Shown here piece by piece: positions 1-34,263 of a DNA stretch of 40,386 nucleotides. The translations under genes were made by a program, and so were the position numbers. The notes under the pieces were generated by a model. It ran no database searches and was not told the DNA's origin. It saw nothing but the letters and a program-made list of their open reading frames with translations. The DNA comes from Bacillales bacterium (GTDB lineage Bacteria; Bacillota_I; Bacilli_A; RF39; UBA660), in the NCBI GenBank assembly GCA_016282415.1, contig JAEEKO010000012.1, positions 1 to 40,386 of the forward strand. Direction: 5' to 3'. The stretch's first letter is position 1. Every line of letters begins with the position of its first letter.

Positions 1-156
1 AGAATCATCAAATATTTCTTTTATTATTAAATAATCGTAATAATCTTTATCTTCAGCATTCCTATATTTATAATAAGTCCTTTTGCTTATTTCTAAAACA
101 GCACACATATTTGAAACCTTATATTCATTTATATATAAGTTAATAAATGTTACTTT
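1..156 (-). CDS. IS3-family transposase OrfB, N-terminal fragment. It lies in the -1 frame relative to orfA and is truncated by the window edge.
   Basis: My own translation of the reverse complement of 1..156 gives KVTFINLYINEYKVSNMCAVLEISKRTYYKYRNAEDKDYYDYLIIKEIFDDS. The segment (V)CxxLxISxxxYYxY is the HTH_21-like start of IS3 OrfB. The frame stays open upstream across the orfA stop, as expected for programmed -1 frameshifting. Confidence 0.75.
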
Positions 157-425
157 CTCTCTCGTTGTGCCTTTAGGAAGGCTTGGTATTTTTTTAGTAT
201 TTCATATCTCTCTTTATAATCAATGTTTTTTACACTTTTTCTACCACGTGAATTATTTATATCATTAATTTGATTCCCTTGCTTATGATTTTTTTCTATC
301 CAATGCCACACTGTTCCAGGAGATAAACCATATCTTTTTGCCAATTGTGGGTAGCCACCAAAATTACCAGATTTATATTCATCTATAACTTTCTGCTTAA
401 ACTCAATAGTATAATGCTTGCCCAT
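150..425 (-). CDS. IS3-family transposase OrfA (helix-turn-helix DNA-binding part)
   Basis: 91 aa. The sequence MGKHYTIEFKQKVIDEY...GYPQLAKRYGLSPGTVWHWIEK has the HTH and leucine-zipper-like tail pattern of IS3/IS150 OrfA. The stop is TAA at 150-152. Confidence 0.85.
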   Translation of the reverse strand: MGKHYTIEFKQKVIDEYKSGNFGGYPQLAKRYGLSPGTVWHWIEKNHKQGNQINDINNSRGRKSVKNIDYKERYEILKKYQAFLKAQRERK

Positions 426-523
426 AAAAATAACACCTTACTTTCTTGAGATGTTATTCTATAACAAATTACTCTTTTTTAAAAGTGTCCAAAATAGGGT
501 TCACTTCAATTGATTCATCTTTT

Positions 524-2848
524 TTATTTAACATACTTTTCAGCAGTTTTAATAAGATCTTTGGTACTATATATTTTAATTTTATAATACTTATCAGTTT
601 TCTTTAAAATAATTTGATTATGTTTTTTATCTAATCCAACCAGATTATCAATAGTTGCAATCTTTTCATAATCTTTATTTAATACTAAACCTTCAATATC
701 ATTAGTTAAATGAATATTGCCATTATTATCAATACCAACTAAACGTGTTACCTTAGTAGCATTCTTAACTGTACTTAATAGTTTCTTGGTTTTAGTATCA
801 TAAACTTCTAAAGTATGATCTTTATATGTAAATATCATAATATTCTTAGCTTTAACTTCAACATAACTAGTTGCTAAATCTTTTTTATTTGATGGATATT
901 TAGCTATATTCTTGGTTACATCAGTATCCTTAATAACATCTGATTTATATTCAAATTTATCTAAAGCATCCATCTTATTATTAATTTTGTCATAAATAAT
1001 TACACGATTATCATTATTTGGAATTGCTAAGAAACCATTGTCAGTATATTCATATGATGCATATTCCGTAACATTCAAATCAAATAAATCTGGGTTTTGA
1101 ATCGCATCTTTATATTTTGATCCGCAAGCATAATAATTACCATCACTTGTAAAAACTAAGAAATTATCAGAATTTAAAAATACCAAAGCCTTTAAGGTTG
1201 ATGCTCCAACCGCATAGTTTCTTATTTGAGAACCATCTTTAGTATCTAAAACATAACCAGATGATCCAGCAGCAACATATAAAGCATTATGATTATCACT
1301 TAATGCTATTAAGTTGCTAAAATTGTTATTATATTTTTTACTCCAAATAGTATCCATACTCTTTAAATTAATTTTATAAATATTCATACTTTCTGAACCA
1401 GTATTAAAAGTGTTGTTTAGTAAGTATAAATCATCCTTATAAATAATATATTGATCTCCTAATAAAGAATCAAACTTCATTTCTTTAGCTTTTAAAGTAT
1501 TTAAATCAATAATATTAACTACTTCTTCAGTTGCTTCTTTATCACTTAACATTGATACTTTAACAGTAAAGATTAAATAATCATCAGTTATTGCGGTAGT
1601 AGTATTATATAAATGATCACGATCAAGCTTATGAGCATATACCTTTTTAAAATTATAATCATATACTTCTAACGAAGTTCCACTATAAACAACTAAGTAT
1701 TTATCAGATGAGTTAACATAAGAGACTCCTTTAAAGGTCTTTACTTTCTTACCTTTGAAATCCCTAATTATCATATTATTATCATTTGCATAATAAGCAA
1801 TATATTTATCACCTATAAAATCAAAATAGAATTTATTGCTTACATAATTATATAAATCATCATATTTTTTTAGTACTTTATTATTTTTTAAATCATATAA
1901 AGTTATTGTACTTGAAGTGTCAGTTATTAATACTTTATCTCCTTTATCATTAGCTTTCATGTAGTTAGCTATTCCTAAAGTATCAATTTGATCAACTGCT
2001 CTATTAGTTATACCTAAATCATATACCCCTAATGCCGAAGTAAGACTGTCAATGGCTTCACTAGTTTTAGGCATTTTCATACCATCATATTTAGTTAAAG
2101 CTTGATATGATTTAGTAATTGCGCTCATGCGATCATCATTACTTAAATCGACATTAGCTTCTTCAGCTAGTTTTAATGACCATAAATTTAATATGGTGCT
2201 TTGTTTACTCTTAATAATAATTAAATTCGCTGATGCATATATCAAAAAGAATAATAAAACACCGGTTAATGTTCCAAAAATACGAATCATATTTTTTACT
2301 TTTCGTTCATGATGTCTTCTTTTTAAATCATCATAATTCAAATTAAACATTGGTGCAATTAAACGTAATAATTCTTTCTTTAAATTTGCTAGTACTTCTT
2401 TTTTCGATGCACCACGGCAATCTAAAGCAAGGGGTTCAACCGCTTTTTTGGTTTTTTCATCATATAATAATTCTTTAGGGAAAGAATCAGCTGGTTCCCC
2501 TTCTACTAAAACAGCTAAAACATGGCTACGACCATGAAGTTTAATAAAAGTTTCAATTTCTTTTTTACACCAAATTGATTCCTTTAATCGTGGTGAACAA
2601 ATAACAATTAAATATTCACTGTTTTGTAATGCTTGAATAATTGGATCCTCTAAACTATTAGCAAGAGGTAATTCTTCCTGATCACGGAAAACACGTTCTA
2701 TTTTTGTTTTTTCTAAATTGTTCGTCTTAATAATACTTTTTGGTAATTTATAAGTTTCTAATAAACGATGTAGATTAGTTGCAACAAACTTATCTAAATC
2801 ATTATGGCGATAACTAATAAATGCATCATATTTTAACTCTTTAGACAT
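524..2848 (-). CDS. Transmembrane TIR-domain protein: N-terminal cytoplasmic TIR, one TM helix, C-terminal extracytoplasmic beta-propeller-like repeat domain
   Basis: 774 aa. Residues 7-120 (DAFISYRHNDLDKF...LIVICSPRLKESIWCKKEIETF...LAVLVEGEP) show TIR hallmarks. A basic stretch RRHHERKVK precedes the hydrophobic helix IRIFGTLTGVLLFFLIYASANLIII (aa ~187-213). About 550 aa of recurring blades follow, for example TITLYDLKNNKVLKKY, SLEVYDYNFKKVY, GYVLDTKDGSQIRNY and TLEVYDTKTKKLL. Confidence 0.8.
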   Translation of the reverse strand: MSKELKYDAFISYRHNDLDKFVATNLHRLLETYKLPKSIIKTNNLEKTKIERVFRDQEELPLANSLEDPIIQALQNSEYLIVICSPRLKESIWCKKEIETFIKLHGRSHVLAVLVEGEPADSFPKELLYDEKTKKAVEPLALDCRGASKKEVLANLKKELLRLIAPMFNLNYDDLKRRHHERKVKNMIRIFGTLTGVLLFFLIYASANLIIIKSKQSTILNLWSLKLAEEANVDLSNDDRMSAITKSYQALTKYDGMKMPKTSEAIDSLTSALGVYDLGITNRAVDQIDTLGIANYMKANDKGDKVLITDTSSTITLYDLKNNKVLKKYDDLYNYVSNKFYFDFIGDKYIAYYANDNNMIIRDFKGKKVKTFKGVSYVNSSDKYLVVYSGTSLEVYDYNFKKVYAHKLDRDHLYNTTTAITDDYLIFTVKVSMLSDKEATEEVVNIIDLNTLKAKEMKFDSLLGDQYIIYKDDLYLLNNTFNTGSESMNIYKINLKSMDTIWSKKYNNNFSNLIALSDNHNALYVAAGSSGYVLDTKDGSQIRNYAVGASTLKALVFLNSDNFLVFTSDGNYYACGSKYKDAIQNPDLFDLNVTEYASYEYTDNGFLAIPNNDNRVIIYDKINNKMDALDKFEYKSDVIKDTDVTKNIAKYPSNKKDLATSYVEVKAKNIMIFTYKDHTLEVYDTKTKKLLSTVKNATKVTRLVGIDNNGNIHLTNDIEGLVLNKDYEKIATIDNLVGLDKKHNQIILKKTDKYYKIKIYSTKDLIKTAEKYVK

Positions 2849-2871: not shown

Positions 2872-2878
2872 ATTATAA

Positions 2879-2880
<2 letters not shown>
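2872..2880 (-). promoter_or_regulatory. Extended -10 promoter element TGTTATAAT for the TIR gene
   Basis: The minus strand reads TTTTTTTTGTTATAATAATTTTGAAATGAGTTGATTTAAATG. This is a TGnTATAAT match 24 nt upstream of the ATG and immediately after the ligA terminator T-run. Confidence 0.5.
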
Positions 2881-4892
<2,012 letters not shown>

Positions 4893-6965
4893 CTATAATT
4901 TTTTTAAATTCTTATGGGTTTTCATAATCTTTTTAATGCCAATGTTCTTACTAAATGCAACCGATACAAAATCACCATCTATTGCTACTATTGTACCACT
5001 TCCATACATTGTATGGATAACACGATCACCAACAATGTAATTTTCAGTACTTGAATAAATATCTTTTTTATTAATAACGGCTTTTTCTTCCATTTGTGGA
5101 TTAACAATATCTAAGTCATCAGCATTTACTTCACTAATAAATCTTGATGGTGGATTTAATTGTTCATTACCATACAGAATTCTTCGCTTTGCATTAGTTA
5201 AATAAAGTCTTTTCTTAGCGCGAGTCATTCCAACATAACATAAACGGCGTTCTTCTTCGATACCATTTTCTTCATTAAAGGAATTAGCGTGTGGGAAGAT
5301 ACCCTCTTCCATTCCAACCATGAACACAACATCAAACTCAAGTCCCTTAGCACTATGTAAAGTCATTAAGGTTACCGCATTTTCATAAGTCTTATGTTCA
5401 GAAATGTCAGCAATTAAACTTATTTCTTCTAAAAAATCATTTAAATTGACACTGCCCGTTCTTTCCTCGAAGGAACTAGTAATTGATTTAAACTCTTCTA
5501 AGTTATCTAATCTTAATTCATTTTCTAATGTGCTGTCAGTTTCTAGTTCATGACGCATTAAAGACTTATCTAAAACATCCTCAATTAATTCCGTAAGAGA
5601 TAATGATTCACTATCCTTAGTTAATTCCTCAATTAATTGTTTAAATCCTAATTCTTTATCAGTACTTAAGGCATCGTACATAGAAACACCTTTTTCATTA
5701 GCTAAATCTTCTAATTTAGTAATGGAAGATTCACCAATTTTTCTTTTCGGAACATTTATAATTCGTTTTAAACTAATATTATCATTCTTATTAGCAATTA
5801 ATCTTAAATAACATAATAAATCTTTAATTTCTTTACGTTGATAAAAATAGTAACTACCTACTACTTTATATGGAACATTAGCTTTAATAAATTGTTCTTC
5901 AACTAAACGCGATTGACCATTGGTGCGATAAAGAATAGCAATATCTTTATAATCAAAGCCACTTAATGTTAAACGATTAATTTCATCTAACACTTCTTTA
6001 ATTTCATGTTTATCATCATAAGCACGAATATATTTAGTTTTAACCCCAGTACCTAAATTACTAATTAATTCTAGATCTTTACGTTCTTTATTATTCTTAA
6101 TAACGGCATTAGCAGTGTCTAAAATATATTTAGTAGAACGATAATTTTGATTTAAAGTAATAACTTTACAATCCGGATAATCACGTTCAAAGTTTAAGAT
6201 GTTTTTATAATTAGACCATCTAAAACCATATATTGCTTGATTAGAATCCCCTACTACAAACAAATTCTTTTCTTTTTTCGCTAGTAACTTAACTAAATTA
6301 TATTGTACTTCATTAGTATCTTGATACTCATCAATTAAAATATACGGATATTTATTTTGATATTTTTCTAAAATATCAGGATTAGTATTAAATAGATTTA
6401 CTGGAAGTAATAATAAATCATCGAAATCAACACAGTTATTATTTTTTAAAGTTTCTTGATATTTTAAATAAATCTCATAAGCTTGTTTTTCCGGTTCAGT
6501 ATTAAAGTAACGAATAATATCGTTTTCTGATAACATTTCATTCTTAATAAAACTAATACGATTACGGACATAACTAGGACTTAGTGATTTAATGTCCATT
6601 CCTTTATCTTTCATAACTTTTTTAATAATACTTAAAGAATCATCCGAATCCATAATCGTAAAACTTTTAGTTAATCCTAAGTGTTCACATTCATTTTTAA
6701 CAATACGTAACCCTAAACTATGGAAGGTTCCTAAAAAAACATCATTGGATGGACATAAATTATTTAAACGTTCTTTCATTTCTTTAGCTGCTTTATTGGT
6801 AAAAGTAATTGCTAAAATATGATAACTTGGTATCCCTTGTTCAATTAAACGATTAATACGATATGTTAATACTTTGGTTTTCCCAGATCCAGCTCCTGCT
6901 ACTACTAAACAAGGCCCATTAAGGTGTTCTACCGCTAATTTTTGTTGTTCATTTAAATTGTCCAT
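4893..6965 (-). CDS. pcrA: ATP-dependent DNA helicase PcrA/UvrD (SF1)
   Basis: 690 aa. Walker A is AGAGSGKTKVLT. Other helicase motifs are DEYQDTN, VGDSNQAIYGFR, TLHSAKGLEF and VGMTRAKKRLYL. The pcrA-ligA pairing is the classic Firmicute arrangement. Confidence 0.96.
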   Translation of the reverse strand: MDNLNEQQKLAVEHLNGPCLVVAGAGSGKTKVLTYRINRLIEQGIPSYHILAITFTNKAAKEMKERLNNLCPSNDVFLGTFHSLGLRIVKNECEHLGLTKSFTIMDSDDSLSIIKKVMKDKGMDIKSLSPSYVRNRISFIKNEMLSENDIIRYFNTEPEKQAYEIYLKYQETLKNNNCVDFDDLLLLPVNLFNTNPDILEKYQNKYPYILIDEYQDTNEVQYNLVKLLAKKEKNLFVVGDSNQAIYGFRWSNYKNILNFERDYPDCKVITLNQNYRSTKYILDTANAVIKNNKERKDLELISNLGTGVKTKYIRAYDDKHEIKEVLDEINRLTLSGFDYKDIAILYRTNGQSRLVEEQFIKANVPYKVVGSYYFYQRKEIKDLLCYLRLIANKNDNISLKRIINVPKRKIGESSITKLEDLANEKGVSMYDALSTDKELGFKQLIEELTKDSESLSLTELIEDVLDKSLMRHELETDSTLENELRLDNLEEFKSITSSFEERTGSVNLNDFLEEISLIADISEHKTYENAVTLMTLHSAKGLEFDVVFMVGMEEGIFPHANSFNEENGIEEERRLCYVGMTRAKKRLYLTNAKRRILYGNEQLNPPSRFISEVNADDLDIVNPQMEEKAVINKKDIYSSTENYIVGDRVIHTMYGSGTIVAIDGDFVSVAFSKNIGIKKIMKTHKNLKKL

Positions 6966-7270: not shown

Positions 7271-7684
7271 CTACGCCACCATTTGATTCTCTATTTTTTC
7301 CAAATCCCCTGGCTCATAATCCTTCATTGTAATATTATTAATATTTTCACTTTCAAGATAAGCTTTTAAATCAGCTTTTCCAAGATTATGGTTATTGTTA
7401 ATAATATCAAAGATCTCTTGAGCTTTTTTATAGCCATATTTCATAGCAATGCAATAAAGTGAAACCGCTTTATTATCATTATCAATTGCTTTAGCAATCT
7501 TTTCGTTTTCCGATAATTGTTTATCTTCAACTACTGTTTTCTTTTTTTCTGCCTCGTGGCGATTTAACATATCCACTCTTTGAGCATCAAGGATAGAAAA
7601 AATACCAATATTTATTGTCCTTTGAACATCAATTGGTCCACGTTTTTTTTCGATTTCTTCTTGCGTTTTGAAAGTTACTGACAA
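7271..7684 (-). CDS. Hypothetical cytosolic protein; probable TTG start
   Basis: 137 aa. There is no ATG near the 5' end. The RBS GAAGGTGA is followed 4-5 nt later by TTG at 7684. No TM segment and no recognisable domain. Confidence 0.7.
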   Translation of the reverse strand: MSVTFKTQEEIEKKRGPIDVQRTINIGIFSILDAQRVDMLNRHEAEKKKTVVEDKQLSENEKIAKAIDNDNKAVSLYCIAMKYGYKKAQEIFDIINNNHNLGKADLKAYLESENINNITMKDYEPGDLEKIENQMVA

Positions 7685-7699
7685 AATGTCACCTTCTAT

Positions 7700-7987
7700 C
7701 TATAAAAATTCTACAACCCTAATGTCTTCTTTTAATCTTTCTACTAATGATTCTTTATCATATTTATCAAAAATACCTCTAAATGTTGATGGTTCATTTA
7801 AGAATATTTCATAATACTTAACAAATATATCACGATAATTATCAACACCTAGATCTCTTAAATAATCTAAATTTACCGTTATTAGTTTTTTATTGTCTCT
7901 AATAGCTTCACATAATAATGTAGATGCGGAATTATTAATTGCTTTAATTTGTTCTTTAGTAAAACCTAAATCCTCTAAATACTTCAT
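7700..7987 (-). CDS. Hypothetical helical-repeat protein (mTERF-like LxxLG[FV] repeats)
   Basis: 95 aa. It contains YLEDLGFTKEQIKAI and LDYLRDLGVDNYRDIFVKYYEIFLNEP. The start overlaps the upstream stop (ATGA at 7984-7987). Confidence 0.75.
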   Translation of the reverse strand: MKYLEDLGFTKEQIKAINNSASTLLCEAIRDNKKLITVNLDYLRDLGVDNYRDIFVKYYEIFLNEPSTFRGIFDKYDKESLVERLKEDIRVVEFL

Positions 7988-8316
7988 GCTGCTTTAACAA
8001 CTCCTTTAATGTCTTCCAAAGCTTCTGGTTTTTCATAACCAATTAAGTGAGCTTGAAAAACGTTGCTAGCACTTAAATCAACATCTCTTTCTTGTAAAAA
8101 TTTAACCTTATCTTCAAAAAAGTCATTACATACACAACTTACTAAAGAATAGTTAGATTTACGATTTAATTTTTCAAATGATATACTAGCTAATTCAAGA
8201 TTTCTTTCTACTAATTCTGGATCAGCAAGTGATAATGTTGTTTTAAGCTTATTAGCACACTTACTAATATCAATTCCATACTTTTCAAAAAGTGCTACAT
8301 TATTACAATAATTCAT
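7984..8316 (-). CDS. Hypothetical helical-repeat protein, same repeat family
   Basis: 110 aa. It contains LFEKYGIDISKCANKL and VKFLQERDVDLSASNVFQAHL. The RBS is GGAGGA with a 6-nt spacer. Confidence 0.75.
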   Translation of the reverse strand: MNYCNNVALFEKYGIDISKCANKLKTTLSLADPELVERNLELASISFEKLNRKSNYSLVSCVCNDFFEDKVKFLQERDVDLSASNVFQAHLIGYEKPEALEDIKGVVKAA

Positions 8317-8333
8317 ATGAATTCCTCCAAATT

Positions 8334-9641
8334 TTAGTAAGCCATTAAAGGTACTTCTCTTGGTTCTAATCCTTTTTCTTTAATACGGTCAATAGCTTCT
8401 TTTAATTCATCATAACTATATTTAATTAATACACGAGCATTAAAATAAATATCTAATGTTTCTTTACCATTATTCATTAATAAATCAATTTTATCTTTTA
8501 ATTCTGAATCATAGAATAATACTGGATTCTCAGTTAAGATATCTAAATCAATACCTAAATCTTTTAATGTATTAATATTATTTTTAAATGTTGCTTCATC
8601 AAACTTACTTTCAAGTTCTTCTAATGCAAATTGATCAATATCTAAGTAATCAATACCAGCATCATTTAATAAATCACGCATTGATTGTTTACTATTTTCA
8701 CGATCTAATTCTTTTTTCTCTAATTCTAATGTAATAGTTTGTGCTAAATCAGAATCATTAACTTCATCATTTTCATCTAAAACAATTACATCACTATCTT
8801 CATTAACATCAGTGTCATTTAAATCTTCAACACTAAAACTATTAGTATTTTCTAATTCATATTCTTCATTAGCAAAGACTGGTTCTTCAATAACGATTTT
8901 TTCTTCTTCAACCTTTACTGGTTCATCATCTAAAACATTATCATTAGCTTCTTTGATAACTTCTTTAATAGATTTTCCTGATGTATCTTCGTTATAACGA
9001 CGATCATATTCAAATAAAGCATCTTCAGGGAACATTAATAATTTAGCAGCTTCTCTAGCTTCTTCACGATCTAAATCAAATTGTTGTAATAAATCAATAA
9101 TTTGGTCACGAGTAATATTAATATCACCAGTTAAAGCCATATCAAAATATTCATTTAAACGTTTTTGATTAACAATTTCAGCATCTCTCTTCAAACTTAT
9201 TTCTTCAATTGTAGTTTCAGCAAGACTAGCTTCTTCTTCAACATCTTTAAGTTTATCTTTAGCTTCATTAATTTCATCAGAGATTTTATTAATTGTTTCT
9301 GGTAATTTCTTATCAAGAGTTTCTTTAATAAGAGTTGGTTCGAAATCAATATCTAAACGATCAAGAACAGTCTTAAAATCATCACGATTAATACCAGCTA
9401 AAACAATACCTAATTGTTCACCTTGTTTATTAAGTTCATTGTTCTCTGCTTCTAAATCAGCAATTTTAGTTTGTAACTCAGATTTTTCTTTAGAAGTACG
9501 TTCTTTACTTTCTAATGCACTTTGTCTTTTACGATCCATTTCGATTAAGATAGTACTATCTTCTCCACGGAAATTATAAAGTTTGTCTAATAATGCTGTT
9601 GTTTCTAATGATAGCATTTTACGTTCGATCACATCGACCAC
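8334..9641 (-). CDS. Hypothetical coiled-coil, acidic-linker and helical-repeat protein
   Basis: 435 aa. The N-terminal half is coiled-coil (KEKSELQTKIADLEAENNELNKQ). A D/E-rich linker follows. The C-terminus carries repeats: LLNDAGIDYLDI, INTLKDLGIDLDILTENPVLFYDSELKDKIDLLMNNG and IDRIKEKGLEP. The start is GTG at 9641 or, better spaced from the RBS GGGAG, GTG at 9632. Confidence 0.8.
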   Translation of the reverse strand: MVDVIERKMLSLETTALLDKLYNFRGEDSTILIEMDRKRQSALESKERTSKEKSELQTKIADLEAENNELNKQGEQLGIVLAGINRDDFKTVLDRLDIDFEPTLIKETLDKKLPETINKISDEINEAKDKLKDVEEEASLAETTIEEISLKRDAEIVNQKRLNEYFDMALTGDINITRDQIIDLLQQFDLDREEAREAAKLLMFPEDALFEYDRRYNEDTSGKSIKEVIKEANDNVLDDEPVKVEEEKIVIEEPVFANEEYELENTNSFSVEDLNDTDVNEDSDVIVLDENDEVNDSDLAQTITLELEKKELDRENSKQSMRDLLNDAGIDYLDIDQFALEELESKFDEATFKNNINTLKDLGIDLDILTENPVLFYDSELKDKIDLLMNNGKETLDIYFNARVLIKYSYDELKEAIDRIKEKGLEPREVPLMAY

Positions 9642-9702
9642 TCCCTTATTTTAATCATATTCTTCTATTTAAAATTATAGCAATAATCAAGTTGAAAGTA
9701 AA

Positions 9703-9734
9703 GAAAAAAAGTTACCGCTTAATGGGTAACTTTT
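9703..9734 (-). terminator. Rho-independent terminator after the 9735..10115 gene
   Basis: The minus strand reads AAGTTACC-CATTAAGC-GGTAACTT followed by TTTTTC. Confidence 0.75.
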
Positions 9735-10115
9735 TTAACTAGCAATTTTATTTTTATGATTGAGAACTAAGAAATTTAAATCTTGGTCAACATGACGGAA
9801 AATGGTGTTATGATCATGTAATTCACACTCATAACATTTTTTAATAGCATTAAAGGTTGTTCGATTATAATCACGAGCAGCTTCAGTTTTAGAACCGCAA
9901 ATTTTTTGTAAGTTTTCAATATAAGCTTTATTTAATCCTAGTTTATTATAAAGTTGAATAATTAATCCGATACGTAAATAATAAGTACGTAATTCGCGAG
10001 CTTTTTCACTAATAATTTCTGTTTCAATACGATGTAATTCAGCTTCATATTTTTCAAATAATTCGGTAATATCTTTGTTTATAATACTTGTTTTTACCAT
10101 TTTAATATTTTCCAT
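9735..10115 (-). CDS. Hypothetical cytosolic protein
   Basis: I trimmed the ORF to the ATG at 10115 (MENIKMVK...) because AAGGAAG lies 7 nt upstream. There is no recognisable domain. It is monocistronic, with its own promoter and terminator. Confidence 0.7.
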   Translation of the reverse strand: MENIKMVKTSIINKDITELFEKYEAELHRIETEIISEKARELRTYYLRIGLIIQLYNKLGLNKAYIENLQKICGSKTEAARDYNRTTFNAIKKCYECELHDHNTIFRHVDQDLNFLVLNHKNKIAS

Positions 10116-10149
10116 AGTTTCACTTCCTTTTTTACAGCAGATGTTCACA

Positions 10150-12752: not shown

Positions 12753-14468
12753 TTATCTGCCATAAAACCTTTGGCCATTCTTATATGAGTAATAATCAAT
12801 TGATGATCCTTTATTAACTAAGAAATAATGTTCATATAATGCTGGTTCAGATATTACTGAAGTTATTTCTTTTTCTTTACTAATATTATAAATAATATAA
12901 GAATTAGAATTAGTAATAAGTGCCATATAACCATAACTAGTTTCTTTTTCTAAAATTTTAATATCAATACCACTAGTTATTTCTTTACCTTTTTCATCTA
13001 ACAATACCTTTTTATTATCATCACTAGCAATATAGTAATTAGCAATTTTAGTATAAGTAATTGCATTATAACCTTTTGATAATTTCTTTAGTTTATTATT
13101 TACCAAATAATAACTATCACCATCTTTAACGATTGCCAATCCATTAATAAATACAGTAGCATCTTGATAAGAAGTCCCAACTTGTTTACCTTTTACCGTA
13201 TAATAACGGAATTCATTATTATCACAACCATTAAATAGATAAATCTTGTCTTTAGTATAACTACTTACAATACCAGAACAATCAATAACCTTTTTAACTT
13301 TATTATTAATATAAAGTTCAATCACATTATTGTTTGTTAACTTAGCATAATGTTTATAATCAGCATATGTGGTATTAAGGGTGGTAGTAACACTATCACC
13401 ATTATTATTTAAAATATATTCTTGGCCATTCTTTTTATAAACAATAACATCACCAACAAAATGTGGAGATTGATCATCATTTGAAACTAAATCAAATTTA
13501 ACCTTTTTATTAACAATTGCGCGATAACTGTAAGGCATTAAACTATCCCCAACACTATCACATGTATTTATTATTAAATCACGATCTGGGACATCCGTAA
13601 TACAAAAACGTTCTTTAGATTTAAAAGCTATAATTTTTTTAAAAGTTCTAATATTATAAATAGTTATTTGATTATCATAATAAATTGAGATAAAGTCCTT
13701 CATATCACTAATAGCAGGAATTTCCTCGGAACTCTTATCTTTAAAACTAGTAATAACTTTACCGTTATGATTCAATAATTTATATTTATCTTTATGCTTT
13801 AATAGCACATAATTATCGGTAAAATTGATTATTTCAAAACCAATTTCATCATATATTTTTTTACCTTTAGCATTTATTAAATAATAATCTGAATCATAAT
13901 CAGTAAGAAAGTATAATGGCCCTTCATTAAATACATATGGATATTTGCCAAACTTAACAACCATTTTTCCTTTATTGTTAATAACTCCAAATTCACCATT
14001 TTTATTAGTTACTAATGACGCATTATTATTAAAACTAGTTACCGTAGTAAATTCAAACTCACTTAATTGTTTACCAGCATCATTAAATAAAGCATATATT
14101 CCTTCACCATTTTCAAGATAGAAGGCATCAGTTTTTAAAACATCAAAATTTTTAATATAATTATTATGAATACTAATAATTCCAATAACTATTGCTATTA
14201 CTATAATTACAGGAATAGGTATTAACCATAATTTATTAAACTTGATTGATGGTAATTTAATTTCTTTTGTTTTTTTACTATTTGATTTGGTTTTTTTAGG
14301 TTTCTTCGAAACATTTATTTTTAATTTAGGTAGTTTTATAGTTTTATCATCATCAATAATATCTTTTTTTTCAATTAATGTTCCGGTTTCTGGATCATTA
14401 ATATAGGTTGGTTCTTTTTTATTATCAAACGTATTCTCATCATTAACATAATTAATGAATTTACCCAT
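12753..14468 (-). CDS. Membrane-anchored WG-repeat (KWG-like) protein
   Basis: 571 aa. A Lys-rich cytoplasmic N-terminus precedes one TM (WLIPIPVIIVIAIVIGIISI). Repeats follow, such as NKNGEFGVINNKGKMVVKF, YYLINAKGKKIY, YKLLNHNGKVITSF and VLLDEKGKEITS. The RBS is GGTGA. Confidence 0.75.
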   Translation of the reverse strand: MGKFINYVNDENTFDNKKEPTYINDPETGTLIEKKDIIDDDKTIKLPKLKINVSKKPKKTKSNSKKTKEIKLPSIKFNKLWLIPIPVIIVIAIVIGIISIHNNYIKNFDVLKTDAFYLENGEGIYALFNDAGKQLSEFEFTTVTSFNNNASLVTNKNGEFGVINNKGKMVVKFGKYPYVFNEGPLYFLTDYDSDYYLINAKGKKIYDEIGFEIINFTDNYVLLKHKDKYKLLNHNGKVITSFKDKSSEEIPAISDMKDFISIYYDNQITIYNIRTFKKIIAFKSKERFCITDVPDRDLIINTCDSVGDSLMPYSYRAIVNKKVKFDLVSNDDQSPHFVGDVIVYKKNGQEYILNNNGDSVTTTLNTTYADYKHYAKLTNNNVIELYINNKVKKVIDCSGIVSSYTKDKIYLFNGCDNNEFRYYTVKGKQVGTSYQDATVFINGLAIVKDGDSYYLVNNKLKKLSKGYNAITYTKIANYYIASDDNKKVLLDEKGKEITSGIDIKILEKETSYGYMALITNSNSYIIYNISKEKEITSVISEPALYEHYFLVNKGSSIDYYSYKNGQRFYGR

Positions 14469-14568
14469 ATAATATCACCATCCGATCATAAAATTATTAT
14501 ATCAATAATATAATTTGCAAACAAGTCAAAATATGATAAAATATCATATAGAAAAAGGGATGAGGCTG

Positions 14569-15084
14569 ATGAATAATAAGAAAATATATATTGTTCTAAG
14601 TTTTACAGGAACTGCTCCCGCTACTTTAATTCGTATGTTTACTCGCAAAAAATATAGTCATTCATCAATTGCCTTAGACAAAGAATTAAATGAGATGTAC
14701 AGTTTTGGTAGACTTAACCCATATAATCCTTTTAAAGGTGGCTTTGTTCACGAAGGAATCTATCGTGGAACCTTTAATCGCTTTAAAAAAACTAAAGCTA
14801 AAGTGTTAGAAATCGATGTTACCGAAGAAGATTATAATCGTATTAGTGACGAAATAGCTAGTTTTAAAAATGGAAAATGGAAATATAATTATTTAGGTGT
14901 ACTGTTATACCCATTAAAAAAAGCAATTCGTTTTAAAAATCGCTTTTATTGTTCAGAATTTGTTAAACATCTACTTGATTTAACTAATGTTGATTTTGCT
15001 TTACCAGAAGTTGTTGAACCATATGATTTTAACAGTATTGAAAAATCTAATGTTATTTATGAAGGAATATTAAGAAAGTATTAA
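14569..15084 (+). CDS. Permuted papain-fold (NlpC/P60-like, YiiX/DUF830-like) protein
   Basis: The His-then-Cys order (KKYSHSSIAL ... RFYCSEFVKHLL) resembles the YiiX family. The start is uncertain: ATGs occur at 14515, 14533, 14560 and 14569. I chose 14569 because the purine-rich GGGATGAGG lies just upstream. Confidence 0.55.
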   Translation: MNNKKIYIVLSFTGTAPATLIRMFTRKKYSHSSIALDKELNEMYSFGRLNPYNPFKGGFVHEGIYRGTFNRFKKTKAKVLEIDVTEEDYNRISDEIASFKNGKWKYNYLGVLLYPLKKAIRFKNRFYCSEFVKHLLDLTNVDFALPEVVEPYDFNSIEKSNVIYEGILRKY

Positions 15085-15097
15085 TATTCTTTTTTTA

Positions 15098-16354
15098 TTA
15101 ATATAAATTAGTCGGGTAAACTGATATTACTGGACGAACTCCATATTTATTACTAGTAGTCTTATCTTCAACAGATAATCGTCCATTATGATCAACAAGC
15201 CATGCATCACTAGTATTAACATTTAATAAATCACTTGTCCAATATCCAGAAGGAGCGCCTTGTTCATCAAGATATTCATAAGTACAACCACTATATGTAC
15301 ATTCTTTAGTATAGTCAAATAACCACGCTGCTTTTTGCTGAGCAGCACTATTCTCACAGTATGTTTCACCATTGTATGTTGGATAATCTTTAACATGGGA
15401 GCCAAAGCAGAACCAATCATCATCAGTTTCAAGATCAAAACTCCATCCATTTTTTGGATTTATTGCAAGTGATGCATCAATTATATCTTGTGCAGTAGGA
15501 AGTTCAACACTTAAAGCGGAACTCCAAGCTTGCTTAACTGTATAACCCGTATTACCTTGATTAAAGAATGTTAATGCATTAGCATAACTCATAGTTGTAG
15601 CATTACCAATTAAATCAGTTACATTTTTTTCAAATATTAACTTAACCGTATTATTAATTGGATTTCTACCCAATAGATAGAAAGTACGTGTAACGCCATC
15701 CCCTAAACTACATTCATATTTAGCACCAACTTCACCAGCATTACCATAAGCATTACTAACAAAGTGACATATTTGTTGTCTCATACGAAAATCGTATTCA
15801 TTGGTAGCTTCACTGGTAACACGCGTTTCTAGATAAACGTACTTTCCAGCTTCAGAACTAGGAATATCATTATCTAACCAAACATCAATATTATGGGTTG
15901 CTGAAGAATTTGGATTTAATAACGAAGATCCAAATTGATAATAAGTAACGCCACCTTCAACATAAGTTGATAACGTCGACATACGTAATGGATGACTATC
16001 AATAGCAATCCAGATATATTGTGGATTAACTAACTCTCCACTAAAGTTGGCAGGAGGATTAAAAAAAAATTCAAATTTATAGATTGCACCATAAACAGAT
16101 GCACTAGTTGACGATACAGTAACTTGAAAATCATGCTCAGCTAAAGCTTCCTGGTTAGTCATCGAATATATATTTCCCGATATAGTTGGACTACCAGAAG
16201 AATATGTTACATTAAACGCCTGTGTTTTTTGATTATAAGTAGTTAATTGACTATCAGTTTTAAATAATGCAAAAGAAGAACTAATAATGGTTAAAATCAT
16301 TAATATAATGATTGCAACAAATAAGCCAATTTGTTTCTTTATTAGTCCTCTCAT
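15098..16354 (-). CDS. Secreted protein with a SipW-cognate-type signal peptide and a Cys-rich DUF1566/DUF6273-like C-terminal domain
   Basis: The N-terminus is MRGLIKKQIGLFVAIIILMILTIISSSFALFKTDSQ; the A-x-F-x-(T)D motif after the h-region matches TasA/camelysin substrates. The C-terminus reads GYWTSDLL...DAWLVDHNGRLS...KYGVRPVISV. The strong RBS AGGAGGG lies 11 nt after the sipW stop. Confidence 0.75.
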   Translation of the reverse strand: MRGLIKKQIGLFVAIIILMILTIISSSFALFKTDSQLTTYNQKTQAFNVTYSSGSPTISGNIYSMTNQEALAEHDFQVTVSSTSASVYGAIYKFEFFFNPPANFSGELVNPQYIWIAIDSHPLRMSTLSTYVEGGVTYYQFGSSLLNPNSSATHNIDVWLDNDIPSSEAGKYVYLETRVTSEATNEYDFRMRQQICHFVSNAYGNAGEVGAKYECSLGDGVTRTFYLLGRNPINNTVKLIFEKNVTDLIGNATTMSYANALTFFNQGNTGYTVKQAWSSALSVELPTAQDIIDASLAINPKNGWSFDLETDDDWFCFGSHVKDYPTYNGETYCENSAAQQKAAWLFDYTKECTYSGCTYEYLDEQGAPSGYWTSDLLNVNTSDAWLVDHNGRLSVEDKTTSNKYGVRPVISVYPTNLY

Positions 16355-16365
16355 TATAAACCCTC

Positions 16366-17106
16366 CTATTGTTTCAATTTAGGTAATTCTATCGGTTCAT
16401 CATCAATGTCTACTTTATTTAATTTTACCTTTATTTCTTCTTTCTTAAATTCTTCTTTTTCCTTTTTAATACTTTTTTCTTCTTCACTATCACTATCTAG
16501 TAATGAAACTTTTTTATTAATTTTTAACATTCTTATTAATTTAACAATATCCGTAATCAATATTACTACTGCTGGAATAAAGATTACTAATAACCATCCT
16601 CCACGACTTGCTAAGAAATACTGAATACGTCCTAATTGCGGAATACGGTATTTAACTTTTCCTAAAACATTATCTTGGCTTACTAAAGAACTATCAACGC
16701 TCTTATTATTATCACCTTTAGTAGTAAAGTAATATCTACCACCGACTTTTTTAATATCGGTTACACGGTGTGTAACAGTCATTCCTTTAGATATACTTGA
16801 TTCTGATTTAAAAGTAATTACATCATTTACTTTTACGGTTCTAAAATCACGAATTGGAAGATCAATTATAACATCATAAACTCTAATGTTAGGTTCCATT
16901 GATGGACTAACAATAGTATATAATGAGAATAATGGTTCATATCCTCTACCCTTTTTAGAATAACGATAACTTGCTACTACACAATAAACTAATAAAACAG
17001 CAATAATCAATAATAATATAAATACAGTCCATGCAATAACATCTTTAAGAAAATTAAACATGCCAACAAATGACCAATATCTTCTTTCACCTTTTTTATT
17101 CTTCAT
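16366..17106 (-). CDS. sipW: Signal peptidase I, SipW/archaeal-ER type
   Basis: Motifs seen are SPSMEPNIRVYDVII (catalytic Ser), VTHRV (His) and KGDNN, plus a second C-terminal TM and a charged tail. I set the start at the ATG at 17106 because AGGTGG lies 8 nt upstream. Confidence 0.85.
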   Translation of the reverse strand: MKNKKGERRYWSFVGMFNFLKDVIAWTVFILLLIIAVLLVYCVVASYRYSKKGRGYEPLFSLYTIVSPSMEPNIRVYDVIIDLPIRDFRTVKVNDVITFKSESSISKGMTVTHRVTDIKKVGGRYYFTTKGDNNKSVDSSLVSQDNVLGKVKYRIPQLGRIQYFLASRGGWLLVIFIPAVVILITDIVKLIRMLKINKKVSLLDSDSEEEKSIKKEKEEFKKEEIKVKLNKVDIDDEPIELPKLKQ

Positions 17107-17192
17107 AACGGTTACCACCTATCATAATAATTATATAAATTTTTTTGATTTAAAACAATAGTAAAAACCAAGTTATAGTCGGTTTTTTCATA

Positions 17193-17771
17193 TTATTCCA
17201 CATTATCAACAATTAATACGCCCGCAAATGTCTTATTCATATCAACACTTTGATCATAATCACGATTTTTATAATCAACGTAAACGTTAATATTATGTTC
17301 ATCCCCTTTAACAAGAGATACATCAGCTAGGATAACACTATCCGTTTTAGGGAAACTTCCTTCAGCGATTCGGCGATCATTAATATCAATGTAATAAACT
17401 AAATCTTGGTAATTAACAAAATCATTGGTTACATTTATCCACTTAAGGTTATATTTTAAATCTGCATCACTTTTATTAGTTATTTTAATTTCCTTGATAA
17501 TACTCATTTGACCTGGTACTACATCAGTAGTTTTTATAGGTTTAACCTCTGATCCAGTAGGATAAACAACTTTAATAACTTTGGTAACAGTCTTTTCAGG
17601 AAGTTCTTCACTACTTTCATCAGATACATCAGTTACTGGTTCAGATTCATAGGTATCAACAAAACGATAAAAATATAAACACGTACTAAATATTGCAAAT
17701 AAAAAGCATAATGAAAACAAGATATAAAGAAAGTATCCGTTATGTTTTTTCTCATTTCTTGTTTCATTCAT
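17193..17771 (-). CDS. Membrane-anchored camelysin/TasA-like beta-sandwich protein (weak family call)
   Basis: An N-terminal TM (YFLYILFSLCFLFAIFSTCLYFY) is followed by VVPGQMSIIKEIKITNKSDADLKYNLKW, which resembles the PGD...N.G...Y motif of the Peptidase_M73/TasA family. The start is the ATG at 17771, with RBS AGGTGA 5 nt upstream. It abuts the upstream stop. Confidence 0.65.
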   Translation of the reverse strand: MNETRNEKKHNGYFLYILFSLCFLFAIFSTCLYFYRFVDTYESEPVTDVSDESSEELPEKTVTKVIKVVYPTGSEVKPIKTTDVVPGQMSIIKEIKITNKSDADLKYNLKWINVTNDFVNYQDLVYYIDINDRRIAEGSFPKTDSVILADVSLVKGDEHNINVYVDYKNRDYDQSVDMNKTFAGVLIVDNVE

Positions 17772-17780
17772 GCCTATCAC

Positions 17781-19358
17781 CTATTTTAATTTAATAAAAT
17801 AACTACGATTTCTTAATGATATTACTAATCTTATGTCAGTACTATTAATAAATCTTTTATCTACTTGTAATAGCGTTACTCCTTTTAAATCACTTGGAGT
17901 TATATCCATTACATCACTCATCAAATAATTATCACCATATTTATAATAAATACTACCATGATTATTATACAATTCTTTTTTACTTATTTTGTTTGCATAA
18001 TAATTAATATTACTTGAAATAAATTCATCTTTTAATCCAAGAACTGCATAACCAAATCCATAATTGGAATAATCTGGTGTAACTACTTTTTTAATACCGT
18101 TAACGGTATATTCGTAATATCCACCTAAATATGCTTCAAAAACAGTTAATTTGGAACTACCAATAATTGATCCTTTAAAAACCATTCCCTTATTTAATCC
18201 AACTTCATTAATTTTATTAGAAGATAAAATTTTATTTGGACTTAATTTAATATACTTCTTAGTAGCAACTAAATCATTCTTATGAACATTATATTCATTA
18301 ATAATTAATAAACTGAATTTCTTATTTATTTTCTTTTTAGGTATTTCATAAATTATTGCATATGTTTTAGTAGCCTTTGGTCTTATTTTTTCACCACGAT
18401 AAGGGACTCCTAAATCACTAAAGTAATCACTACGATCATAGATTGGATAATAATACTCACCATCTACTTCTAATGTTAAATCTTTCTTTTGTAGTTTTAG
18501 TGAATTACTAGTAATATTAGTTGCATCAATACTGATACCTAAATAATACTTATCATCTTTATTGTTATTACCGCGATAATCTAAGTTAGTTAAGATACTA
18601 GAATTAATTTTATATTTAAATCCATTGATATTAACCACTTGCATTTGTTTATAGGTACGATGATATAAAATGTAATTATAGAATCCAAAAATTGCTAAAC
18701 CGACAGCTGCAATAATACCAATAATGGTAATAATAAATTGATTTTCAAAGAAATAATATTTAAATTCTCGAATATAACGATGAATTTTTCTTTTTAATTT
18801 ATAATTATCACGATCAAATGAGATTTCTACTTCTTCACTATCTTTTTCTTCGATTTCAAGTTCTTTAAGATCTTTATTAAAATCAAATTTTTTAATATCA
18901 AATCCAATCGCACGAATAATATCGTAAATTAAGAAGAAATATTGTGGTAAATACAAGATTAATGAAACATCACGATAAATTCGAACGGAAGTAATTTTCA
19001 TTATTTCATCTTCTAATGATGCTAAACCGGAATAAGCAATAGTAAAACCAATCATTAAAATAATATAGTAAATAATAATGCCTAAATAAAGTTTGATTGA
19101 TTTTTTCTTTATCAAGAATAAGTAAGTAATTACAATAACAATCGCTAATATTAGGATTACTGCTAAATACATAAAGACATTAACATAACTACTTGCTAAA
19201 TTATTAGCATATTCATAATTACCATTAGTAGCATAACTACCAAAGAATGAAACAATACGACTAGTACGATATAATACGTAGATAATAGGGAGAATCAATA
19301 TAGCATGGATTAAACGAAAGTGTTTAATTAAAAACGCGTAAGGCTTTTTAAATACCAT
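17781..19358 (-). CDS. Polytopic membrane protein with a DUF4352-like extracellular domain
   Basis: 525 aa with about five TM helices. The segment LGISIDATNITSNSLKLQKKDLTLEVDGEYYYP...IRPKATKTYAIIYEIPKK follows the DUF4352 Ig-like pattern. The RBS is AAGGAGG. Confidence 0.7.
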   Translation of the reverse strand: MVFKKPYAFLIKHFRLIHAILILPIIYVLYRTSRIVSFFGSYATNGNYEYANNLASSYVNVFMYLAVILILAIVIVITYLFLIKKKSIKLYLGIIIYYIILMIGFTIAYSGLASLEDEIMKITSVRIYRDVSLILYLPQYFFLIYDIIRAIGFDIKKFDFNKDLKELEIEEKDSEEVEISFDRDNYKLKRKIHRYIREFKYYFFENQFIITIIGIIAAVGLAIFGFYNYILYHRTYKQMQVVNINGFKYKINSSILTNLDYRGNNNKDDKYYLGISIDATNITSNSLKLQKKDLTLEVDGEYYYPIYDRSDYFSDLGVPYRGEKIRPKATKTYAIIYEIPKKKINKKFSLLIINEYNVHKNDLVATKKYIKLSPNKILSSNKINEVGLNKGMVFKGSIIGSSKLTVFEAYLGGYYEYTVNGIKKVVTPDYSNYGFGYAVLGLKDEFISSNINYYANKISKKELYNNHGSIYYKYGDNYLMSDVMDITPSDLKGVTLLQVDKRFINSTDIRLVISLRNRSYFIKLK

Positions 19359-19385
19359 TCATATCTCCTCCTTATTCTATCTTTT

Positions 19386-19394
19386 ATTATAACA
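19386..19394 (-). promoter_or_regulatory. Extended -10 element TGTTATAAT upstream of the 525-aa gene
   Basis: The minus strand reads GATATGTTATAATAAAAGATAGAATAAGGAGGAGATATGAATG. Confidence 0.5.
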
Positions 19395-19400
19395 TATCAA

Positions 19401-19850: not shown

Positions 19851-19896
19851 ATTTTAAGTCTCCTTTACTTTAAAATATGTTTCTTAGTTTAAGATG

Positions 19897-21448: not shown

Positions 21449-21499
21449 AAACATCACCTAACTTTATTATATATTATAATTACTAAAAATACTATTATT

Positions 21500-32767: not shown

Positions 32768-32790
32768 AGTACCACCATTATCATTTTACC

Positions 32791-32830: not shown

Positions 32831-32855
32831 TTAAAAATTTTTGTTTTTTTATTTA

Positions 32856-34190: not shown

Positions 34191-34263
34191 TAAATCCCTA
34201 CTCTCTATGATAAGAATACCATAAATGAAATAAAAATGGCAAGTTTTTTTATTTATATATAAA

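Follow-up and report, generated by a model that had tools for sequence, protein, structure and literature searches.

A predicted type II transmembrane TIR protein with a hypervariable beta-propeller in Bacilli and Lachnospiraceae

The gene and its chromosomal setting

The window (the whole 40,386-nt stretch of DNA that was analyzed) contains, next to ligA and pcrA and a fragment of an insertion sequence (IS), a gene for a 774 amino acid protein in which we predict a cytoplasmic TIR domain, one transmembrane helix, an extracellular helical stalk, and a beta-propeller (Table 1). The open reading frame is real, as initially annotated. It had been described as a stand-alone gene, and it is indeed monocistronic, without a partner gene in the lineage of the window. 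The claims that it follows the ligA terminator and has its own promoter also find their counterparts in the sequence: an intrinsic terminator was located upstream of the gene and is followed by a promoter-like element, TGTTATAAT. Terminator and element are both conserved in the relatives L001 and L004; L006 instead has TGATATAAT within a longer spacer. A promoter consensus scan made no call at TGTTATAAT, which it missed because no -35 element is present.

Table 1. Features of the gene and its flanks, in window coordinates.
Feature	Position	Strand	Basis
IS3-like fragment at contig end, with HTH OrfA at 150-425 (context only)	1..508	minus	HTH_28, HTH_Tnp_1
Whole gene, TIR / transmembrane / beta-propeller protein, 774 aa	524..2848	minus	ORF list
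C-terminal helix, aa 762-773	530..565	minus	AF2 models
Predicted extracellular beta-propeller, aa 276-760, hypervariable	569..2023	minus	AF2, Foldseek
Predicted extracellular helical stalk, aa 213-275	2024..2212	minus	AF2 helices 213-236, 240-251, 263-273
Predicted single transmembrane helix (signal-anchor, N-in), aa 187-212	2213..2290	minus	Hydropathy, AF2
Basic juxtamembrane stretch KRRHHERKVK, aa 176-185, predicted cytoplasmic side	2294..2323	minus	Sequence, charge bias
Predicted cytoplasmic TIR domain, aa 7-167	2348..2830	minus	Pfam, AF2 model, PDB matches of profile
Putative catalytic Glu97 (codon GAA) within W93-C-K-K-E97	2558..2560	minus	Alignment to Roq1 Glu86
Extended -10 promoter-like element TGTTATAAT, 23 nt upstream of ATG	2872..2880	minus	Sequence
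Intrinsic ligA terminator, 10-bp stem then T-run	2884..2907	minus	Terminator prediction

The IS fragment begins 15-20 nt beyond the stop codon, as had been noticed. Homology to L001 ends at position 509, the 'TGAACCC' end of the IS lies at 503, and genes other than the IS follow the TIR gene in relatives. The IS is a strain-specific insertion at the contig end and no marker of a mobile island.

The initial annotation took the gene to be an accessory one and proposed to compare the locus downstream of pcrA-ligA in related genomes. That comparison overturns the accessory status. The gene lies directly after pcrA-ligA in relatives whose LigA proteins are 99.5%, 92%, and 85% identical, and its synteny is kept within each lineage. 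Its GC content (25.9% vs 28% for the window) indicates native composition, and the surroundings are core chromosome, with rplKAJL, parAB, ychF, and ftsEX. PADLOC matched 0 of the 10 uncharacterized neighboring ORFs of the window. Patchy presence, atypical composition, and defense neighbors, the marks of a mobile or accessory defense island, were not found at this locus. It has the behavior of a chromosomal gene that has long been resident and is inherited vertically, unlike one from a mobile defense island.

Three other assignments were considered and rejected. Recent horizontal acquisition has composition and synteny against it. A scan of IMG/VR returned no relative of the protein, which speaks against a phage origin. 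Membership in a known defense system was set aside, as PADLOC gave weak, TIR-level matches only for the protein itself and none for the 10 neighboring ORFs.

Cytoplasmic TIR domain

The TIR call stands, with two Pfam models above their cut-offs: TIR_2 (PF13676; 43.2 bits against a cut-off of 28, E 6.8e-11, amino acids 10-119) and, more weakly, ThsB_TIR (29.2 bits against 21.2). The AF2 model has the flavodoxin-like fold of a TIR domain, in which five strands (7-12, 53-55, 77-84, 110-114, and 140-143) alternate with helices. Its pLDDT is about 80-88 and is lowest in the BB-loop, at 61-64. In the PDB, a profile of the family TIR domain finds the TIRs of TLRs, plants, AbTir-like proteins, Cat1, and TcpB, and the top matches are the TIR domains of TLR2, TLR15, TLR6, and TLR1.

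The three motifs first picked out lie where they were said to lie (DAFISYRH at amino acids 8-15, LIVICSP at 80-86, and SIWCKKEIE at 91-99). Glu97, which had been placed at the catalytic position of TIR NADases, pairs with Roq1 Glu86 in a WC-x-x-E alignment. W93, C94, and E97 are invariant in the 63 (alignment A1) and 38 (alignment A3) aligned homologs from Bacilli and Lachnospiraceae, as is F10-I-S-Y-R-H15, which we take to resemble the plant NADase motif F-x-S-F-R-G. The PDB matches show the Glu aligned to E97 kept in animal TLR TIRs as well, which reportedly lack NADase activity. The residue is therefore necessary evidence for catalysis but not sufficient. Judged by its motifs, the family TIR carries the hallmarks of an active enzyme, with a putative NADase activity.

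Membrane topology

Hydropathy gives one hydrophobic segment (amino acids 187-212, Kyte-Doolittle peak 2.3), matching the single helix proposed at about 187-213, and this segment is embedded in a continuous AF2 helix spanning 172-236. Exactly one such hydrophobic segment is found in the same place in 119 of 120 homologs. Lys and Arg are more numerous in the N-terminal than in the C-terminal flank in all 120 (mean 6.5 vs 3.1), which places the TIR side inside, as the positive-inside rule had been taken to imply. Inspection of the protein sequence found no N-terminal signal sequence. Hydropathy and charge bias predict a type II (N-in, C-out), single-pass protein. Pfam, hydropathy, charge bias, AF2, and Foldseek together give the domain order originally suggested, in which a cytoplasmic TIR domain is followed by one transmembrane helix and an external propeller.

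Stalk and propeller

The AF2 model has a pLDDT of 87 for the full-length protein and 91.8 for the ectodomain alone (pTM 0.83). About 43-44 strands are modeled in the ectodomain, and AF2 and Foldseek agree on a closed ring of four-stranded blades, that is, a beta-propeller irrespective of blade number. The best rigid Foldseek matches are 8-bladed: Tako8 (TM 0.77, E 1e-14), ODA16, BamB, and Fbw7, with target TM of 0.64-0.77, rmsd of 4.3-5.8 Å, and sequence identity of 10-14%. These matches cover about 350-376 of 503 ectodomain residues and leave about 130-150 outside; given this partial cover and the strand count, the figure of eight blades is provisional. The model may contain eight blades plus extras, or more blades. 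Extra blades occur in other family members, and blade number varies in the family. The initial annotation had described a roughly 8-bladed propeller of about 550 amino acids; the propeller is borne out, with best matches among 8-bladed ones, but the length is about 485 amino acids. Pfam propeller matches in the ectodomain are all under their cut-offs, and sequence matches to PQQ_2/BamB are weak.

The stalk is more conserved than the propeller (mean pairwise identity 57% vs 39%). Its invariant residues in the homolog alignment are L227, T252, P260, T262, and L269.

Evolution of the domains

The two ends of the protein evolve at different rates. Within the family, pairs of TIR domains are on average 76% identical and pairs of propellers 39%. 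Against L004, whose LigA and PcrA are 92% identical to those of the window, the TIR domain is 93% identical and the ectodomain 44%, with the break in conservation near amino acid 181. The ectodomain has a dN of 0.51 in this comparison, vs 0.05 for ligA and pcrA, and an omega of about 0.49, vs 0.06 for the neighboring genes. Near-identical strains differ by 0-1 substitutions on the cytoplasmic side (186 residues) and by up to 22 in the propeller. The ectodomain evolves about 10 times faster than the neighboring genes, and the cytoplasmic TIR is very conserved, being 59-71% identical across two bacterial classes. As omega is below 1, fast evolution of the ectodomain also fits relaxed constraint.

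A more distant relative (LigA 85%) has an ectodomain identity of 74%, compared with only 44% at LigA 92%, so the ectodomain is discordant with the species tree. The divergent L004 ectodomain may have been imported from a distant donor or may have evolved rapidly in place; every comparison has dS close to saturation, which does not separate the two. Some Lachnospiraceae have 2-3 tandem paralogs with diverged ectodomains.

Distribution and genomic partners

The family is large and conserved, with at least 582 species-level genomes and at least 4,350 clusters at 50% identity (E<=1e-30). It is carried by gut and rumen Bacilli and Lachnospiraceae, the latter including cultured ones such as AB2028 and NC2008. 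The initial annotation held that this mode of action had not been characterized, and our literature search likewise gave no published characterization; the literature searched, to which the 2015 NAR survey by Burroughs et al. did not belong, contains no description of a TIR-transmembrane-propeller family.

In Lachnospiraceae, a distinct gene for a DHH/DHHA1 phosphoesterase directly precedes the TIR gene, and the DHH stop and the TIR-gene start often overlap. Across the related loci, such a gene is directly upstream in 53 of 85, and the median distance between the two is -1 nt. Two look-ups anchored on DHH again found a TIR gene downstream, with different flanks. The Lachnospiraceae DHH protein has intact DHH and GGGH motifs and no transmembrane segment. 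HMMs built from neighbor clusters found no DHH homolog in the window or in Bacilli-type loci, so DHH is not an obligatory component here. The HD and HAD neighbor-cluster profiles hit related loci only, among the matches listed, and these neighbors may be there by chance in the few Bacilli loci that have them. A DHH, HD, or HAD partner was rejected for the window on these matches.

An NrtR-type Nudix regulator precedes the DHH-TIR pair in 6 loci, and GH3, uxaC, and KDPG-aldolase genes flank these loci. Regulators of the NrtR family can control sugar catabolism (AraR, PMC4666351), and with such flanking genes the link to NAD through NrtR is only suggestive.

Predicted function

We propose, at a probability of roughly one half, that the protein is an outside-in, single-pass receptor whose putative output is NAD+ cleavage catalyzed by the TIR domain or a signal in nucleotide form. 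Genes for FtsEX, an M23 peptidase, and a LysM protein point to a cell wall in this organism, and in such a peptidoglycan-bearing Firmicute the stalk and propeller would face the cell-wall side and the TIR domain the cytoplasm. The propeller would bind a surface or extracellular ligand, and binding would alter the packing or oligomeric state of the transmembrane and stalk helices. This would bring TIR domains together and switch on NAD+ cleavage, and the result would be a nucleotide signal of the ADP-ribose type or a local drain on NAD+. In Lachnospiraceae, the cytoplasmic DHH/DHHA1 phosphoesterase is a candidate to process or terminate the TIR product. The analysis shows the identity of the domains, the topology signals, the pattern of conservation, the synteny, and the linkage of genes; we infer the enzyme activity, the ligand-driven oligomerization, the nature of the product, and the role of DHH.

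A more specific version, which we offer tentatively, is a prokaryotic outside-in pathway in which the variable propeller senses a surface, host- or phage-derived ligand, the TIR domain makes an NAD+-derived messenger, and DHH/DHHA1 turns it over in Lachnospiraceae. Such a pathway would serve gut Firmicutes as a resident second-messenger system and not as a suicide defense, and bacteria would thereby have a first counterpart of receptor-type TIR signaling.

Suicide defense is itself an alternative, one that we regard as rather unlikely: the propeller would detect phage adsorption or envelope damage, the TIR domain would deplete NAD+, and the cell would be killed or arrested. Phage adsorption heads the cues that the initial annotation had proposed. 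All characterized bacterial TIR enzymes that we know of act in phage defense. The ThsB_TIR score, the PADLOC matches at the TIR level, and a hypervariable, species-tree-discordant ectodomain with tandem paralogs, as in an arms race, would also suit such a sensor. The setting argues otherwise, with core chromosome in place of a defense island, neighbors that PADLOC does not match, stable synteny across relatives, no effector partner in the window's lineage, and no relatives in IMG/VR. The identity of the TIR domain across two classes is, in our judgment, also unusual for defense genes.

It is improbable that the TIR domain, like that of animal TLRs, serves as a scaffold without catalysis and signals, or organizes an envelope process, by contacts with other TIRs or with partners. 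The profile matches to TLR TIRs that keep the aligned Glu fit this proposal, and the extreme conservation of the TIR surface fits a conserved protein partner. Yet W-x3-E is invariant together with F-I-S-Y-R-H, which recalls the plant motif, and a non-catalytic prokaryotic TIR with a Glu at the catalytic position is not known to us. In addition, a gene for a nucleotide phosphoesterase accompanies the TIR gene in Lachnospiraceae, and no second TIR protein is encoded nearby.

Least probable is that the ectodomain is the functional end (an adhesin, glycan binder, BamB-/YxaL-like wall scaffold, or phage receptor) with the TIR domain regulating or anchoring it: the BamB matches in structure and, weakly, in sequence, the strain variability of an exposed domain, like that of surface antigens, and the variable blade number agree with this, but the cytoplasmic TIR is by far the most constrained part, which is unexpected for a mere anchor, and an anchor has no need of an invariant catalytic-type Glu.

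The bacterial TIR enzymes known to us are all cytoplasmic components of anti-phage systems, and transmembrane TIR receptors are, as far as we know, regarded as an animal invention. In this family an enzyme-type TIR sits behind a predicted membrane helix, and the domain outside diversifies rapidly. If the receptor reading is true, bacteria too wire TIR chemistry to extracellular events. Since the carriers abound as commensals in gut and rumen, the ligand could be derived from the host, the diet, phage, or neighbors. The family is tractable, as the isolated TIR domain can be assayed directly and cultured carriers exist, and the co-located DHH phosphoesterase gives a handle on the TIR product.

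Comparison with known systems

The protein shares a TIR fold, a helix-C Glu, and a Trp at -4 with ThsB, AbTir, TIR-STING, Cat1, and plant Roq1, L6, and AtTIR. Those proteins are, as far as we know, soluble and cytoplasmic and respond to intracellular cues or partner domains, and we know of no bacterial or plant TIR NADase with a transmembrane helix plus an extracellular sensor. PADLOC and the neighboring ORFs show no ThsA, STING, SAVED, or Argonaute partner in the window. Thoeris was rejected on the same grounds, as there is no ThsA and the neighbors are ligA, pcrA, and the IS fragment. On a ThsB type of TIR the models diverge: ThsB_TIR is above its cut-off, though weaker than TIR_2, and the NCBIfam Thoeris model scores 17 bits on the protein against a cut-off of 220. 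Clustering the 85 related loci revealed no recurrent ThsA-type effector (SIR2 or Macro/TM with SLOG).

For the propeller, the likeness to Tako8, BamB, ODA16, and Fbw7 is structural, with low sequence identity and partial cover. External-propeller, single-pass sensors include M. tuberculosis PknD (NHL propeller) and the Bacteroides hybrid two-component systems (Reg_prop). [quoted passage not shown]

The ADP-ribosyl cyclases CD38 and CD157 convert NAD+ to ADPR or cADPR signals. Their fold is unrelated, and their catalytic domain usually faces the exterior; the TIR domain here is predicted to face the cytoplasm. The likeness lies in the type II, single-pass layout, as described for CD38 (PMC9454491), and in NAD+-derived signals, putative for the family protein.

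Animal Toll-like and IL-1 receptors also cross the membrane once, between an external repeat domain that binds ligand and a TIR in the cytoplasm, and the predicted layout here likewise has one transmembrane helix between external sensor and cytoplasmic TIR. Of the Toll-like-receptor topology claimed by the initial annotation, this layout of sensor, helix, and TIR holds. The chain order does not: in place of the type I arrangement of TLRs, with N-terminal LRR or Ig and C-terminal TIR, the family protein has an N-terminal TIR, a type II orientation, and a propeller as ectodomain. It also differs from these receptors in having no MyD88-type adaptor and in a TIR domain that carries the motifs of enzymatic TIRs.

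TIR domain, ectodomain and predicted topology

The TIR motifs read from the sequence in the initial annotation are all present in the protein: DAFISYRH at residues 8-15, LIVICSP at 80-86, and SIWCKKEIE at 91-99. The basic stretch that it described is found as KRRHHERKVK at residues 176-185. Pfam TIR_2 matches residues 10-119 (43.2 bits, E 6.8e-11; curated cut-off 28), and the ThsB_TIR profile also scores above its own cut-off. In a phmmer search of the PDB, the TIR domain of the plant receptor Roq1 aligned to residues 52-115. The alignment places Glu97 on Roq1 Glu86, the catalytic residue of Roq1, in W-C-x-x-E, which agrees with the catalytic position proposed for it. The protein belongs to the TIR superfamily and has a catalytic-type Glu, and we consider its catalytic competence fairly probable. 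Shortly after the Glu97 codon, the TIR coding sequence contains a terminator-like hairpin followed by a T-run (2521-2536, minus strand), which in such AT-rich DNA has probably arisen by chance.

Every propeller match by sequence falls below its cut-off. An AlphaFold2 model of the full-length protein, built from 63 family members, is confident (pLDDT 87, pTM 0.72), and a model of the ectodomain by itself surpasses it (pLDDT 91.8, pTM 0.83). The best rigid Foldseek matches of the ectodomain are the 8-bladed Tako8, ODA16, BamB, and Fbw7, with the designed Tako8 at a TM score of 0.77 and an rmsd of 4.3 A. Tandem-propeller proteins give the best E-values, yet superpose poorly. The suggested propeller is thus borne out by modeling, while the suggested count of about eight blades is only partly so, as the 8-bladed matches span only about 350-376 of 503 residues and do not fix the number.

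Hydropathy gives one TM-grade segment in the protein, and 119 of 120 homologues likewise have exactly one, at the corresponding site. The 15 residues before it hold more Lys and Arg than the 15 after in all 120 (averages 6.5 versus 3.1), and an N-terminal signal sequence is absent. These features together predict a type II orientation (N-in, C-out), in agreement with the single helix, inner TIR domain and outer propeller originally proposed. The organism's genes include FtsEX, an M23 peptidase and a LysM protein, which indicates the presence of peptidoglycan, so the propeller would lie on the wall side of the membrane. We hold the TIR, TM helix and propeller architecture with high confidence.

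Features of the gene, its flanks, the modeled protein and a linked gene cluster in relatives
Feature	Location	Strand	Remarks
TIR-TM-propeller ORF	524-2848	minus	774 codons; directly downstream of pcrA and ligA
ligA	2898-4883		immediately upstream of the TIR-TM-propeller gene
pcrA	4893-6965
ligA terminator	2907-2884		no terminator-like site in the first 3.2 kb is clearer
-10 element TGTTATAAT	2880-2872		23 nt before the ATG, after the ligA terminator
IS3-like fragment (HTH_28/HTH_Tnp_1 OrfA)	1-508 (ORF 150-425)	minus	runs into the contig end
TIR domain, five-stranded alpha/beta	aa 7-167		AlphaFold2 model
One unbroken helix	aa 172-236		AlphaFold2 model; includes hydrophobic stretch 187-212
Two short helices	aa 240-273		AlphaFold2 model
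About 43 beta-strands	aa 282-758		AlphaFold2 model; followed by a terminal helix
NrtR, DHH, then one to three tandem TIR-TM-propeller paralogues	L036: 5667-15499; also L037, L054, L056, L063, L078		loci of relatives; paralogue ectodomains strongly diverged

Genomic setting

The gene had been considered accessory, and this is wrong. The window consists of core chromosome (rplKAJL, parAB, ychF, ftsEX, and ABC transporters), and the GC content of the gene (25.9%) matches that of the window (28%). The order pcrA-ligA-TIR is kept in three relatives whose LigA is 99.5%, 92%, and 85% identical. None of the 10 neighboring ORFs scanned matches a PADLOC model. Other lineages also keep the gene in stable places: after rplS-lepB in another group of Bacilli and, in many Lachnospiraceae, between glnS and purine genes. 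Core surroundings, native GC content and kept positions are as expected of a long-resident, vertically inherited gene.

The initial annotation correctly placed the gene after the ligA terminator with a promoter-like element of its own; both are kept in the related loci L001 and L004, and the related locus L006 has its own TGATATAAT within a longer spacer. It was also right about the IS3 end, which begins ('TGAACCC...') at 503, 20 nt beyond the stop codon. Homology to the 96%-identical L001 ends at position 509. Past the TIR gene, L001 has a convergent gene for a peptidase S55, and L004 has a gene with an ALK_LTK_GRD domain. Because the IS is absent here in L001 and other genes follow in relatives, it is a strain-specific insertion, and it probably caused the assembly break at this contig end.

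In this lineage ligA, of the NAD+-dependent DNA ligase family (Pfam DNA_ligase_aden, OB, and BRCT domains), adjoins a putative NAD+-cleaving TIR gene. Since a terminator lies between them, the adjacency is most likely coincidence.

Upstream of pcrA is a minus-strand run of ORFs (7271-10148) with no Pfam or PADLOC match, three of which reach 120 aa (137, 435, and 137 aa). L001 and L004 have a similar run there of small to mid-sized genes without Pfam matches. Many large minus-strand ORFs at 12753-22909 and 32147-36910 have no Pfam family or only weak matches to repeat or surface-type domains (WG_beta_rep, DUF4352, LysM, and bPH_3); they are possibly lineage-specific envelope proteins.

Size and spread of the family

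A search of 5.8 billion protein sequences returned at least 2,609 matches. All of the top 120 are full-length proteins of 773-825 aa with 35-96% identity, and the only named ones among them are called 'TIR domain-containing protein [Bacilli bacterium]'. Searched with a profile, 1.84 billion representatives clustered at 50% identity yielded 4,350 clusters at E<=1e-30, of which the top 150 reach E<=1e-143. One genome per GTDB species was scanned, and at least 582 of these genomes carry relatives. Among the 80 best, Lachnospiraceae predominate, alongside Bacilli and Erysipelotrichaceae MAGs from gut and rumen; Butyrivibrio, Acetatifactor, Wujia, Blautia, and the cultured strains AB2028 and NC2008 are included. 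No relatives were found in IMG/VR. Proteins of a 950-1060 aa subfamily (P0298, P0340, P0371, and P0389) have the same TIR-TM front and extra propeller repeats, so repeat number varies within the family.

Uneven evolution of the inner and outer halves

Mean pairwise identity in the family falls from 76% in the TIR domain to 57% in the helical stalk that joins TM helix to propeller, and to 39% in the propeller. TIR domains of Bacilli and Lachnospiraceae are 59-71% identical, with 33 invariant columns. Four alleles more than 90% identical differ at 0-1 of 186 cytoplasmic residues and at up to 22 in the propeller. Some Lachnospiraceae have two or three tandem paralogues with ectodomains 27-37% identical and cytoplasmic parts 52-64% identical. 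In the comparison with L001, the propeller has an omega of 0.17 and the neighbors one of 0.02.

Relative to L004, dN is 0.05 for PcrA and LigA, 0.07 for the TIR domain, and 0.51 for the propeller; omega is about 0.49 for the propeller and 0.06 for the neighbors, and identity falls steeply near residue 181. Relative to the more distant L006, propeller dN is only 0.17 (LigA 0.12), so the ectodomain tree conflicts with the species tree. In the L004 lineage the TM-ectodomain module was either swapped or underwent a burst of evolution, two histories that look alike because dS is near saturation.

A constrained inner module with a diversifying outer module has the look of a surface receptor. The pattern also fits a surface antigen or phage receptor, and the fast change of the propeller is compatible with relaxed constraint, with omega remaining below 1.

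Linked genes in relatives

In 53 of 85 loci, each one of Lachnospiraceae type, the TIR gene directly follows, on the same strand, a gene for a distinct DHH/DHHA1 phosphoesterase of about 510 aa. The two genes have a median gap of -1 nt, and stop and start often overlap. Carriers are L009, L014, L036 (6388-7935), L060, L086, L087, and 49 others. The DHH and GGGH motifs are intact in this protein, which lacks a TM segment and carries an additional conserved domain at its C-terminus. No named NCBIfam equivalog matches it, neither NrnA, GdpP and RecJ nor the pyrophosphatase. When the DHH protein was taken as the starting point in two MAGs, one of Blautia and one of Clostridium, the TIR gene again overlapped the DHH stop codon, so the pair is kept there though flanking genes differ.

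In six loci, a gene for an NrtR-type regulator (Nudix and NrtR winged helix; 65 bits) lies 8-11 nt before the pair. NAD metabolism is under the control of NrtR regulators, which respond to ADP-ribose (PMC2330246), but some family members govern sugar use instead (PMC4666351), and all six loci are flanked by sugar-catabolic genes (GH3, uxaC, and KDPG-aldolase). The tie of the DHH-TIR pair to NAD metabolism is therefore suggestive only. Both the DHH and the NrtR gene are absent from the window and from the Bacilli-type loci compared.

In the Bacilli-type loci L011, L057, L002/L003, and L047, a 187-aa HD-domain protein and HAD hydrolases adjoin or lie near the TIR gene. L057 has HD genes on both sides, directly downstream and two genes upstream. 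This proximity may be chance or another phosphohydrolase link. The matches listed for the window include no HD or HAD homologues.

Proposed function and comparison with known systems

We propose, with a probability of about 0.5, that the protein is an outside-in receptor. The propeller would bind a ligand outside the cell, and the signal would pass via the conserved stalk and TM helix. Self-association activates other TIR enzymes; here, association of the cytoplasmic TIR domains would switch on NAD+ cleavage. The likely output would be an ADP-ribose-type nucleotide signal or NAD+ consumption.

The protein could instead be a dedicated anti-phage abortive-infection sensor. Strong conservation, resident genomic behavior and the phosphoesterase partner make a regulated signaling role somewhat more likely than pure suicide defense. 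Other alternatives are a TIR domain that acts as a non-catalytic scaffold and a surface function centered on the ectodomain. The protein is not a Thoeris component, as ThsA is absent.

We found no published description of the family in the full-text literature searched, which does not cover subscription journals, so we call it undescribed provisionally. The new element would be putative TIR NAD+ chemistry with transmembrane, extracellular-sensor input. Among PDB entries, TLR TIR domains match the family's TIR profile best; however, the protein is not a TLR homologue in architecture, since its domains run in the opposite order and its ectodomain is a propeller. Its logic, with a propeller outside and an enzyme in the cytoplasm, is like that of PknD and of Bacteroides hybrid two-component sensors, and its proposed chemistry and its topology class resemble those of CD38.
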